A stretch of 64,000 nt of DNA from an uncultured virus (IMG/VR IMGVR_UViG_3300020196_000017) (taxonomy: Duplodnaviria; Heunggongvirae; Uroviricota; Caudoviricetes), in the IMG/VR virus record IMGVR_UViG_3300020196_000017. One strand, given 5' to 3'. Both the position numbers and the translations under genes were made by a program. The notes beneath the pieces are model-generated. The model was not told the origin of the DNA. It did not search any database and saw nothing but the letters and a program-made list of their open reading frames with translations. Position 1 is the stretch's first letter, and each line of letters opens with the position of its first letter. Shown here piece after piece: positions 42,107 to 44,726 of this stretch.

Positions 42107-43258
42107 TCAGACGCTACCGTCATCAGACACAAAGCTGTAGGCGGTGGTCACGAAGTCCTTGTTCAGGATCTCGAAGCCAGCGTACAGTTGCCAGATGAGG
42201 ATGATGAAACGGCTGAAGTCGTCGTTGTTGTTGATCAGCACCTGAGCGTTCGGACCGCCGATACCAACGCCAATGGCTTGAGGACCGAAGAAGAAACCTT
42301 GGGCAACTTCTTGGTTGGCATAAGGGGCAGCGCCGGTGAAAGAAGCCGAAACGTTCTTGGTCGGGAAGTTGGTCGACTCGAAGAACTTAACGCCTTCAAA
42401 CTGAACACCAGTCGGCATGACGGGTTCACCAGCCAGGAAATAAGCCTGACCAGCTTGGGGACCCATGTAGAAGCTGGCGTTGTTAGGCATCATGGGGTTG
42501 CCCATGTACATGCCTTGGCCAGGATTGCCAGCGTAACGAGCAATTTCACGGAAGTCGGGATCACGACGCAGGTGCATCATGAAGGTGGGATCGCAGATGC
42601 AACGATACAGACCATCAGCGAAGGTAGGAACGTTACGCTTGCGCAGATCCTTGACAACAGTCAGAAGGTCGGTACGCACCGAGAACTGCTGCACATCAGC
42701 GGTGTACTCAGCGGAGCTGTAAGTAACTTGGCTGGAAGAGTTCTTGGCTTTGTTACCAGGGAAGTAGTAACCACCTTGGGTGCTGGAAGCTTGACCATTG
42801 GCATCAGCTTTGGCCAGTTCGTCAATGAAGACGCGGTCACGCCAACGGCGATAGTCATCAAGCAGCGTCAGGCTACCGATCGACTGGTGGAACATATTCA
42901 GGTTGCCGGTGTCCAGCAGCAGACGCTGGGCGGTAACCAGGGTTTCACGAGCAATCTTGAAGGTGCTGGGCTGGGTCGGATCGCCCGGATCAGCAGGGCC
43001 GGTGTACTCTTTCAGCACAACAAGCACCTTCTCTTTGGTGATGTTGCGGCTGTTAGCGGTACCGATGGTTTGGTCAGCCACGCGCTCACGGCTGTCCTTG
43101 GTACCAGGAGTACCCCAGAACTTATAGCGGTCGAGCTGAACGGTTTGACCAGGCTGACGAGTGAAGTCGTGAACAACCACGGGCTCCACAGCCATCTCGG
43201 CAATATATGCAGGGTGCGGACGATAGAGTTCCGCGCCTAAAATCTTTGGAAAATCGTT
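42107..43258 (-). CDS. major capsid protein, exon 2 (spliced CDS joins 44091-44080 to 43258-42107; 387 aa)
   Basis: Frame extends 21 codons upstream of the listed ATG (NDFPKILGAELYRPHPAYIAE-MAVEP...); capsid-like PGQTVQL, CICDP and DDFSR; follows portal and scaffold. Confidence 0.85.
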   Translation of the reverse strand, partial: NDFPKILGAELYRPHPAYIAEMAVEPVVVHDFTRQPGQTVQLDRYKFWGTPGTKDSRERVADQTIGTANSRNITKEKVLVVLKEYTGPADPGDPTQPSTFKIARETLVTAQRLLLDTGNLNMFHQSIGSLTLLDDYRRWRDRVFIDELAKADANGQASSTQGGYYFPGNKAKNSSSQVTYSSAEYTADVQQFSVRTDLLTVVKDLRKRNVPTFADGLYRCICDPTFMMHLRRDPDFREIARYAGNPGQGMYMGNPMMPNNASFYMGPQAGQAYFLAGEPVMPTGVQFEGVKFFESTNFPTKNVSASFTGAAPYANQEVAQGFFFGPQAIGVGIGGPNAQVLINNNDDFSRFIILIWQLYAGFEILNKDFVTTAYSFVSDDGSV

Positions 43259-44079
43259 CTCCTGGTCCCTAATTTCTTAGAGGGGTGGACTATCTCTTCA
43301 TCCCTGTGGGATGCCGGACGCTAAATCTGGTATTACGTAACAAGATCGTGTTACCCCCAGTAGTCTCTGCACCTTCCAATCACGGGCTTGATTGGCTTGG
43401 CTCAGGATTACCCTCGTCTTTACGTTAGGGCTTCCCTGAATTCATCCGGTTTGCACTCATCAATTACTCGATGAGGTGACAACGTTGAGCGTTCAGTTGA
43501 GGTATGATTTGGAAACCTGTTCATAAACAACATGGATCCAAAATTAGTTCCTGGATTTGGTAACCTTTACTTAACAGAAAGAGGAGAAGCTTTTGAAAAA
43601 CAACTTGATGAAAACAACCAAGAATATTTTCAAAAAATTGCAATTAGCTCAACCAGTACTTATGACCGTATTTCTGTTCTTGTAAATGGAAGAAGAAAGA
43701 GGTTTCATCTTCACGTCTTGATGGCTATTGCTTTTTTAGGGTTAGATCTTCGTTCACATGGAACAAATAATTTTTCCCTTCAAGTAGATCACAAGGACAA
43801 CAACAAAAGAAATAACTGCGTCGATAACCTTGAAATCGTAACCAAACAAGAAAATCTTACAAGAGCTTGGGAAACCGGTTGTTACAAGAACAATGGTTTT
43901 GCTAGTAAAGGCAGACCGAAAAAAACTTTAAGAAAATTTTCTTCGGAAGACGTGAAGCAAATTAAAACTTTAAAAGAAGCAGGACTTTCTTATCGAAAGA
44001 TTGCGGAAAAGTTTAACTGCAATCACGGTGCTATTTACCAAATCCTAAAAGGAAATACCTACCAGGATCTGAACTAGCT
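43259..44079 (-). mobile_element. group I self-splicing intron (821 nt) carrying a homing endonuclease
   Basis: P AAUUCAGGGAAGCC, Q AAUCCUGAGCCAAG, R GUGCAGAGACUAC, S GAAGAGAUAGUCC; P3 and P7 pair; 5' exon ends in U, intron ends in G; IGS CGUUGUCA. Confidence 0.9.
43532..44077 (+). CDS. HNH homing endonuclease with C-terminal HTH, intron-encoded, antisense to the host gene
   Basis: HVLMAIAF...VDHKDNNKRNNCVDNLEIVTKQEN; LSYRKIAEKFNCNHGAIYQI. Confidence 0.88.
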   Translation: MDPKLVPGFGNLYLTERGEAFEKQLDENNQEYFQKIAISSTSTYDRISVLVNGRRKRFHLHVLMAIAFLGLDLRSHGTNNFSLQVDHKDNNKRNNCVDNLEIVTKQENLTRAWETGCYKNNGFASKGRPKKTLRKFSSEDVKQIKTLKEAGLSYRKIAEKFNCNHGAIYQILKGNTYQDLN

Positions 44080-44091
44080 ATCAATAAACAC
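44080..44091 (-). CDS. major capsid protein, exon 1 (GTG TTT ATT GAT = MFID)
   Basis: GGAGG SD at 44102-44106, 10 nt upstream; unspliced frame stops two codons later (AGC TAG). Confidence 0.8.
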
Positions 44092-44186
44092 CTTGGTTTA
44101 TCCTCCAGTGTTAATTTTGTTATCGGGTGAGAAGACTTGGCTTTTGCCTCATCTACTACAAATTGTAGCAGTCAGTAATTTATTTA

Positions 44187-44726
44187 TTACGTGTACTGCA
44201 TGGTAGGTGCTTTATAACGAGCACCCATCGAATTACTGGAGCCATAAGACTCCGGATCAACTACAGCTTGCTGGAATCCAGGGAGACCCATGGCACCAGG
44301 AATAGCGCCAAGGGCTACACCGCCAAGACCGGCAGCAGCAGCAGAAGCAGGAACTAAACCAAGAGCCACGTTCCTACCTAGCACACGCGTAGTTGCCGCA
44401 GTTGCTTCAGGAATAGAACCTGCGCCACCTGCTACATCAGCTAGCTCCAACAGAGCTTTCTGACGTAAACCGCCTTCACGCATCTTTGTTGCTTGTTCAA
44501 AAAGGAAGTCCTGTTGTTCTTGGCCCAAATTTTGGATACCTTTTACCATTTGAGGAGCGTACTTCCCGGCTAGAGCACGTGCCCCAAGTAAACCAGCTGC
44601 ACCACCAAGACCACCGGCCGCAGCAGCAAGTGCCGCAGAACCGGGATCCTCTCCTTGAGAAAGGGCGTACCCACCCGTGGCTAAGCCAGCAGCAATAGGT
44701 ACGCCATAAGCTAAGCGCTTACGCAT
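44187..44726 (-). CDS. Gly/Ala-rich hydrophobic protein
   Basis: 179 aa with several AG-rich hydrophobic stretches. Confidence 0.65.
   Translation of the reverse strand: MRKRLAYGVPIAAGLATGGYALSQGEDPGSAALAAAAGGLGGAAGLLGARALAGKYAPQMVKGIQNLGQEQQDFLFEQATKMREGGLRQKALLELADVAGGAGSIPEATAATTRVLGRNVALGLVPASAAAAGLGGVALGAIPGAMGLPGFQQAVVDPESYGSSNSMGARYKAPTMQYT

Follow-up and report, generated by a model that had tools for sequence, protein, structure and literature searches.

A reversed HNH endonuclease gene in the P1 extension of a capsid-gene group I intron from an uncultured cyanophage

The stretch of DNA analyzed here (the window, 64,000 nucleotides (nt) in length) is IMG/VR record IMGVR_UViG_3300020196_000017 from an uncultured virus and, as judged from 82.6% DNA identity to S-EIV1 (KJ410740) over capsid exon 2, is a relative of this polar freshwater Synechococcus phage, i.e., a cyanophage. 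The major capsid gene is split by an 821-nt element which, according to its covariance-model match and to intron-less alleles, is a group I intron, and this element in turn harbors a gene for a homing endonuclease of the HNH type on the opposite strand. The evidence set out below suggests that this gene occupies the terminal loop of a natural extension of the ribozyme helix P1, that it may be read from a promoter of its own, and that intron and gene together look like a mobile element.

The intron, its exons and the endonuclease gene

The features of the locus, with the strand on which each is read, are as follows.

44101..44106, minus strand: Shine-Dalgarno sequence GGAGGA of the major capsid gene, conserved before the start codon in relatives (GGAGGATA or GGAGAATA)
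44080..44091, minus strand: capsid exon 1, GTG TTT ATT GAT (M F I D); in S-EIV1 and 61 intron-less IMG/VR loci GTGTTYATTGAT is directly followed by AACGAY
43259..44079, minus strand: group I intron, 821 nt (Rfam RF00028), with boundaries taken from intron-less alleles
43266..43509, minus strand: ribozyme core, P2 to P9, covariance-model match to RF00028
42107..43258, minus strand: capsid exon 2, 383 codons and stop, by identity to S-EIV1 and match to PHROG 1357
43532..44077, plus strand: I-HmuI-like HNH homing endonuclease gene, 181 codons, by Pfam, PHROG and PDB matches; antisense to the intron
44060..44077, plus strand: last five codons and stop of that gene, Y Q D L N * (TAC CAG GAT CTG AAC TAG), a sequence common to endonuclease-free introns

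Read along the minus strand, GGAGGA is followed by GTG TTT ATT GAT and then by AGCUAGUUCAG at the start of the intron, the first base of which follows the exon-terminal U (44080); the intron core ends in GGGACCAGGAG, its last base being the G at 43259, and exon 2 opens with AACGATTTTCCAAAG. In S-EIV1 the capsid gene is uninterrupted (GTGTTCATTGAT ACCGACTTTCC; protein MFIDTDFPKILGAELYRPHPAY), and because it reads through the junction, the capsid gene of the window is split after codon 4 by the intron at 44079..43259. Removing the intron restores the capsid frame, with the same join point in 62 intron-less alleles of a capsid set of 82 rows, which is made up of S-EIV1, the window and the best 80 of 597 relatives confirmed in an IMG/VR scan with capsid exon 2. 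The exon 2 product matches the major head protein family PHROG 1357 (E 2.6e-17). The intron lies in a minus-strand structural block containing the capsid gene, open reading frames (ORFs) of 782, 321 and 179 amino acids (aa), and others. The record nearest to the window, G001, stops inside the intron.

The GenBank record of S-EIV1 (KJ410740, 3001-4227) annotates the capsid region as two overlapping, opposite-strand coding sequences for a 'hypothetical protein', while the same region actually holds one continuous, intron-less, GTG-initiated ORF of 383 codons. Automatic annotation splits or truncates such capsid genes.

The ribozyme core at 43509..43266 on the minus strand is the sole Rfam group I intron in the 64 kb, scoring 94.2 bits over model positions 1-253 of RF00028 (gathering score 50), and a short allele of the intron, L036, reaches 92 bits. 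Between P7 and P3' there is a 38-nt insert relative to the general RF00028 alignment, which forms nested hairpins in predicted folds; extra P7.1 and P7.2 hairpins in this place are a mark of subgroup IA, as far as can be taken from the available part of PMC3428280. Among relatives, identity is 95.0-97.9% over the 238-nt segment that runs from CUGAAC up to the intron's 3' terminus (43259-43496) and 79-85% over the endonuclease part. The GC content is 34.8% for the endonuclease ORF, 49.6% for the ribozyme core and 54.5% for capsid exon 2, so that the ORF is indeed more AT-rich than the capsid gene, as an earlier sequence-only reading of the window had noted; on re-reading, all coordinates and pairings which that reading had given for intron, ORF and closing helix are correct.

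The same reading had taken the ORF for a homing endonuclease gene, an assignment now backed by an HNH_3 (PF13392) match of 32.3 bits (cut-off 24.8), by a match to PHROG 59 (E 3e-27) and by I-HmuI (1u3e) as the closest solved chain (E 2.1e-5; residues 43-118, across the HNH motif, where VDHKDNNKRNN...NLEIVT in the window aligns with VDHKDGNKDNN...NLRWVT in I-HmuI). As for a C-terminal helix-turn-helix (HTH) module, a trait of I-HmuI-type enzymes, two HTH families fall just under their cut-offs (HTH_38, 26.5 bits against 27; HTH_7, 21.5 against 23.8), and PHROG 517, an HTH DNA binding protein, is matched with E 1.2e-6. The ORF (43532-44077, plus) lies wholly inside the intron (43259-44079, minus) and, as had been proposed, on the strand opposite to both the intron and the capsid gene.

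P1, the guide sequence and the site of the insert

The helices that place the gene within the intron are listed in 5' to 3' order of the intron RNA.

44077..44083, minus strand: P1 5' strand, exon UGAU and intron AGC, complementary to GUUGUCA with a U.G pair at the splice site
44069..44074, minus strand: P1 extension, 5' strand GUUCAG, pairing with CUGAAC and found in all alleles with or without the endonuclease gene
44055..44060, minus strand: apical stem, 5' strand AGGUAU, pairing with AUACCU at 43505..43500
43500..43505, minus strand: apical stem, 3' strand AUACCU, pairing with AGGUAU
43491..43496, minus strand: P1 extension, 3' strand CUGAAC, pairing with GUUCAG
43477..43484, minus strand: internal guide CGUUGUCA, of which GUUGUCA (43483..43477) forms P1 and CGUU (43484..43481) forms P10; directly 5' of P2
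43456..43475, minus strand: P2 hairpin with GUAA loop, showing a compensatory U-A to C-G change in the alignment of relatives

P10 is formed by CGUU of the guide together with AACG at the start of exon 2; as CGUUGUCA pairs with both UGAU and AACG, a single uninterrupted guide aligns the two exon ends. In addition, the intron's first three bases, AGC (44079..44077), are complementary to GCU (43490..43488) and add to the helix that closes the insert.

The sequence-only reading had located the HNH ORF between the 5' splice site and the guide, that is, in L1, and this is borne out by 14 endonuclease-free introns, which were collected by a separate IMG/VR pattern scan for short P1 loops and include L036 and a second locus, L048. 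They read AGCU(A/G)GUUCAG(A/G)UCCUGG, then a segment of 17-22 nt, then CUGAACGCUCAACGUUGUCA, and they keep GUUCAG...CUGAAC as the base of a short hairpin. The 17-22 nt segment is itself a small hairpin with compensatory changes (AAACAA/UUGUUU, AAGCAA/UUGCUU, AGGCA/UGCCU), often capped by GNRA loops (GUAA, GAAA). By these comparisons, P1 has a natural extension in which the helix GUUCAG/CUGAAC is followed by an asymmetric internal loop and then by a stem-loop at the apex, and because the gene-free introns have a covarying hairpin at the very place where others have the gene, the endonuclease gene is placed at the tip of this extension. The apical stem is retained in gene-bearing alleles as AGGUAU/AURCCU, which both supports and refines the closing helix AGC..GUUCAG of the sequence-only reading. 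Among 26 distinct strand pairs, pairs 1-3 and 6 of this stem are standard in 26/26 and pair 4 in 25/26, and pair 5 is A-U in 17, G-C in 5, A-C in 3 and U-U in 1; these counts come from 89 parsed loci, with at least eight contigs occurring twice and four loci left unparsed.

A long-range clamp of the insert (GAUUUGGUAA with UUACCAAAUC, and further pairing), drawn from minimum-energy and consensus folds, was dropped, as the duplex energy between the two ends of the insert is no better than that of interior windows or shuffles; the row of L033 is mis-anchored in this comparison. What is retained are the two short helices that endonuclease-free introns have as well.

At its 3' end the endonuclease gene runs into the ribozyme helix. 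As had been noticed earlier, the complement of its stop codon is part of the 5' strand of the closing helix: the TAG at 44075-44077 is the complement of intron nt 3-5, and intron nt 3-6 form the palindrome CUAG, by which the capsid frame, too, meets a UAG as its second codon after the splice site (AGC UAG). Since endonuclease-free introns carry the same sequence, the reading frame ends in the intron's own P1 extension. Synonymous variation drops toward this end: of the eligible codons, 12/17 among the last 20 are nucleotide-invariant, compared with 37/119 over the gene (hypergeometric p 3.5e-4), and the last six (TYQDLN, stop excluded) are invariant in 6/6 (p 6.7e-4). Judged by this pattern, the 3' end of the gene is under dual constraint, as coding sequence and as ribozyme. 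An association of the A at intron nt 5 (CTAG) with the presence of the endonuclease gene, which had appeared as 13/13 against 0/2, was rejected, as CTAG is found in 8/14 endonuclease-free introns; because CTAG occurs in all long and in 8/14 short alleles, the stop may pre-date the endonuclease gene.

Allele states, selection and expression signals

The sequence-only reading had called for a survey of relatives for alleles lacking the intron, carrying it alone, or carrying it with the endonuclease gene, and all three are found among the 82 capsid rows. There is no intron in 62/82, where the junction is GTGTTYATTGAT|AACGAY or a close variant; intron and endonuclease gene are present in 13/82 (the window and 12 loci with 83-88% identity across the full intron); a 276-nt intron without the endonuclease gene is present in 2/82 (L036 and L048); and in 5/82 the intron is cut by the contig end. 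On a maximum-likelihood tree of exon 2 from the 82 rows (quick search), the intron state changes at least 12 times, with ten shuffles giving 17-20 changes, and it is these repeated changes that make the element look mobile. Even capsid genes that are almost identical differ in state: intron-bearing L041 and intron-less L044 are sisters with 100% support and branches of 0.0068 and 0.0032, and intron-bearing L059 groups with three intron-less rows. Such a patchy distribution fits homing or frequent recombination.

The exact site ATTGAT|AACGA is present in 32/62 intron-less alleles, and the other 30/62 vary within six bases of the insertion point (CTTGAT, ATTGAC, ATCGAT, ACCGA, AATGA). AACGA is found in 19/19 intron-bearing loci, and the intron in 0/14 ACCGA alleles; the variants may be resistant sites, or sites where P10 could not form. 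As to the direction of evolution, insertion of the gene into a hairpin loop and loss of the gene are both compatible with these states; the covariation and the GNRA loops of the short hairpins argue for a functional state rather than for fresh deletions.

The endonuclease gene is maintained in the copies examined. Its ORF is intact in 13/13 copies of the capsid-derived set and in 80/80 of the endonuclease relatives (the best 80 of 125 from an IMG/VR scan with the endonuclease protein), in 79 of them as a 181-codon ATG-initiated ORF; L136 has a GTG start, with an in-frame ATG three codons upstream. Over 11 distinct sequences (55 pairs), mean nonsynonymous divergence (dN) is 0.073 and mean synonymous divergence (dS) 0.708, with a ratio of 0.10 and a maximum of 0.17, a pattern by which the gene is judged to be under purifying selection. 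In 80/80 of the endonuclease relatives, the TAG is directly followed by the complement of capsid exon 1, hence all 80 lie in the same site and orientation.

Upstream of the gene lies a further feature.

43503..43508, plus strand: candidate -10 hexamer TATGAT, 23 nt before the ATG

Among the 80 relatives, TAnnnT is present at -33..-27 in 78, the other two being one cut by the contig end and one unscored. The longer pattern TGnTAnnnT is present in 71/80, and its inner letters vary (TATGCT, TACAGT, TACGCT, TATCAT, TAAGCT and others). TGnTAnnnT is the extended -10 pattern of sigma-70 promoters, which is able to work without a -35 element. The endonuclease ORF is the only plus-strand ORF of at least 150 aa in 29404-59662 besides shadow frames overlapping longer minus-strand ORFs, and the nearest upstream plus-strand ORFs end ~14 kb away. 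No Shine-Dalgarno sequence is seen before the endonuclease ATG, which is preceded by an AU hairpin of small size, its sequence being UUGUUUAUAAACAA in most alleles.

In many alleles, further in-frame ATGs stand before the conserved start (ATGAACAAC ATG and, further up, MLCFGNLF...), which are lacking in the window (43509-43531, plus); extra ATGs ahead of the -10-like site would fall outside the transcript. On the other side of the intron, between the 179-aa gene and the capsid Shine-Dalgarno sequence, there is a conserved, imperfect hairpin (AGAUAAGACA...UGUCUUUAUCU in relatives) followed by UUUCACCC, at 44110-44170 (minus) in the window, 1255-1310 in L036 and 4165-4225 in L001 (KJ410740), the window version being weaker (fold z -0.5). 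This leader hairpin could be a terminator, a stabilizer of the capsid leader, or possibly a two-way stop for an antisense transcript.

Proposed model, rival explanations and known systems

We propose that the element is a mobile group I intron in the capsid gene, with a reversed HNH gene in the terminal loop of the P1 extension, its own promoter and the capacity for homing, and we put the probability of this reading at about 0.8. In this model, splicing would join the 12-nt exon 1 to exon 2, with the guide CGUUGUCA aligning both exon ends, and a -35-less promoter belonging to the endonuclease gene, at the insert's edge, would drive its transcription. The enzyme would nick intron-less capsid alleles of co-infecting phages near ATTGAT|AACGA, and repair would then copy the intron together with the gene into the nicked allele. 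The reverse orientation would uncouple expression of the endonuclease from the strong late capsid transcript and would keep ribosomes out of P1.

Several observations weigh against this model. The first concerns P1. Both GUUCAG/CUGAAC and the P1/P10 guide are invariant among the alleles seen and thus receive no support from covariation, and the covariance model places P1 elsewhere, leaving the true P1 unaligned in the window and in the short intron L036; because the Rfam model fails to align the real P1, its assignment is a manual pairing. Apart from the two short helices, the ends of the insert are no more complementary to each other than in shuffles (z -0.1 to -2.6 in 11 alleles). Moreover, an alternative 11-bp helix, found in minimum-energy as well as consensus folds, competes with the P1 extension by pairing GUUC-AGA-UCCUGGU (44061-44074) with ACCAGGA-G-AAC (43255-43266) on the minus strand, the latter comprising the last eight intron bases and the first three bases of exon 2. 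This helix is present in endonuclease-free introns too, and it may be due to chance (a 7-mer match is expected about twice per such intron) or may serve to keep the 3' splice site close to P1.

The second concerns the promoter. A generic sigma-70 two-hexamer scan of 42900-44400 returned no promoter and no terminator, and in the window allele TATGAT lacks the TG and its spacer is 5 nt shorter. Thus, of the antisense promoter put forward in the sequence-only reading, the site holds, with TATGAT standing at the TAnnnT position conserved in the relatives, while the generic scan and the missing TG speak against it; overall, a promoter belonging to the endonuclease gene is plausible.

The third concerns the RNA. 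This stretch is represented in 24 sequencing runs, 18 from lake-water DNA and six from RNA (8-15% of sampled words), and four of the RNA runs were examined. Contigs of X19 and X23, from two studies, skip exactly the 821 nt, however, these RNA contigs skipping 43258..44079 are ~10% diverged (the X23 contig differs from the window at 38/358 exon positions) and can stem from common intron-less strains, hence their exon joints are no evidence of splicing. Contigs from X24, X19 and X23 extend over the intron core and part of the ORF, with neither strand nor ends readable, and a contig end at 43258 can equally reflect an assembly break between alleles.

One rival explanation, that of the sequence-only reading, takes the plus-strand transcript to act also as antisense RNA, which would pair with the 5' splice site of the capsid gene as well as its start codon and ribosome-binding site, delaying or tuning capsid synthesis. 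From the endonuclease stop it is 2 nt to the splice site and 14 nt to the capsid start codon, and no terminator-like site is predicted downstream of it (the downstream fold, z -0.5, is unremarkable), so that a 3' untranslated region, if 30 nt or longer, would be complementary to the region where capsid translation starts; a parallel, as cited in PMC3428280, is cyanophage S-PM2, with an antisense RNA that links psbA to a homing endonuclease gene. In its fullest form, this explanation makes the reverse orientation a built-in timer: the -35-less promoter at the P1 tip would fire early, its transcript crossing the splice site, exon 1 and the capsid ribosome-binding site, until late capsid transcription collides with it and stops endonuclease synthesis, with leftover antisense RNA masking the unspliced leader. 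However, 62/82 related capsid genes do without intron and gene, so that capsid timing is independent of the element; the late capsid transcript would be expected to greatly outnumber the endonuclease transcript; and coding and ribozyme constraints suffice to account for the conserved features. We therefore consider antisense control of the capsid gene unlikely, and the timer, taken as a whole, no less so; it seems more likely that late capsid transcription would shut off the endonuclease gene than that an antisense RNA would control the capsid gene.

A different view would be that the endonuclease gene is a silent or decaying passenger without a promoter, expressed by rare read-through from distant plus-strand genes, in an intron spread by vertical descent and recombination. 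The negative promoter scan and the persistence of endonuclease-free introns would agree with this, as would T4 segD, an antisense endonuclease gene beside a capsid gene for which, in the available text of the report, no promoter was found, although segD differs in being free-standing, of the GIY-YIG family and not intron-encoded (Edgell, Gibb and Belfort 2010, PMC2988022). Yet a dN/dS of 0.10 at dS ~0.7, together with the intact ORFs in 13 and 80 copies, indicates that the gene is not decaying, TGnTAnnnT is kept in 71/80 while its inner letters vary, the plus-strand genes from which read-through would have to come end ~14 kb off, and on the capsid tree at least 12 switches of intron state are needed, which together make a mere passenger quite improbable. 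Finally, that the ORF lies outside any intron, as a free-standing intergenic endonuclease gene with the capsid start at ATG 43195 and exon 1 as a relic, is hardly credible, for although an ATG-initiated ORF at 42107..43195 exists and exon 1 has only four codons, in 62/62 intron-less relatives MFI(D)-(N/T)DFPKILGAELYRPHPAY is read without a break from a start preceded by GGAGGA, the guide CGUUGUCA matches both exon ends, and short introns that contain no ORF are attached to the same exon 1.

I-HmuI nicks one strand, and its gene lies on the same strand as the DNA polymerase intron that carries it. As a phage intron-encoded enzyme from Bacillus phage SPO1 (PDB 1u3e), it is the nearest solved protein to the endonuclease described here, the similarity being remote. 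Related intron cores (~76% identity) occur in other genes of Klebsiella and Vibrio phages. In Vibrio phage 1.187.O (L083, 222-2496), a terminase-like gene is annotated in at least three pieces, with two core-like stretches and an adjoining GIY-YIG gene, and this locus is probably a multi-intron terminase gene; in the jumbo Klebsiella phage phiKp_21 (L084, 1501-1681), an unannotated stretch ~77% identical to the core lies between transfer RNA genes.

The general layout of the element has already been published, as the capsid intron of mycobacteriophage LittleE contains a bottom-strand endonuclease ORF. According to the available part of that report (Pope et al. 2013, PLoS One 8:e69273, PMC3706429), the LittleE major capsid gene carries a group I-like intron of ~820 bp with a U at the exon end and a G at the intron end, gp14 is a homing-endonuclease ORF on the bottom strand that is transcribed leftwards, and a related intron without an endonuclease gene is present in BAKA. 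Splicing in LittleE was shown by reverse-transcription polymerase chain reaction and N-terminal sequencing, whereas for the intron of the window it is predicted. LittleE further differs in having a LAGLIDADG-like enzyme instead of an I-HmuI-like HNH enzyme, and in being an actinobacterial temperate siphovirus instead of a cyanophage. Measured against the available text on LittleE (PMC3706429), which names no intron loop for the ORF and speaks neither of an overlap with P1 nor of a promoter, the new points here are the HNH enzyme, its location resolved to the P1 tip, an ORF whose end lies in P1 sequence with two bases left to the splice site, the conservation of TGnTAnnnT, and the series of three alleles within a cyanophage lineage.

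Two further systems share single traits with the element, as far as the accessible portions of the reports describe them. I-DirII, from a nuclear ribosomal DNA group I intron of Didymium iridis (Edgell et al. 2011, PMC3073962), likewise has an antisense endonuclease ORF with its own promoter, but it belongs to eukaryotic nuclear ribosomal DNA, with an RNA polymerase II promoter, a spliceosomal intron and poly(A), and involves neither a protein-coding host gene nor a phage. I-PfoP3I, from the DNA polymerase group IA2 intron of cyanophage Pf-WMP3, is a nicking HNH endonuclease in a protein-coding gene of a freshwater cyanophage, and its intron has P7.1 and P7.2; its differences are a sense-strand ORF beginning in P6a, an intron without P2, and a host gene that encodes DNA polymerase (PMC3428280).

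In this arrangement, an endonuclease gene is lodged in the very helix by which the 5' splice site is defined, takes its final codons and stop from that helix, and appears to bring its own promoter. With three states at one site in an abundant uncultured cyanophage lineage, the alleles form a natural series on how an endonuclease gene colonizes a ribozyme without breaking it. Should the timer exist after all, convergent transcription running across a ribozyme helix would set homing and capsid production apart in time, and this shared use would turn on the CTAG at intron nt 3-6, which gives a stop codon on each strand. An unrelated mycobacteriophage shows the reversed orientation within a capsid gene as well, which hints that there is a general solution for elements residing in late genes of very high expression.

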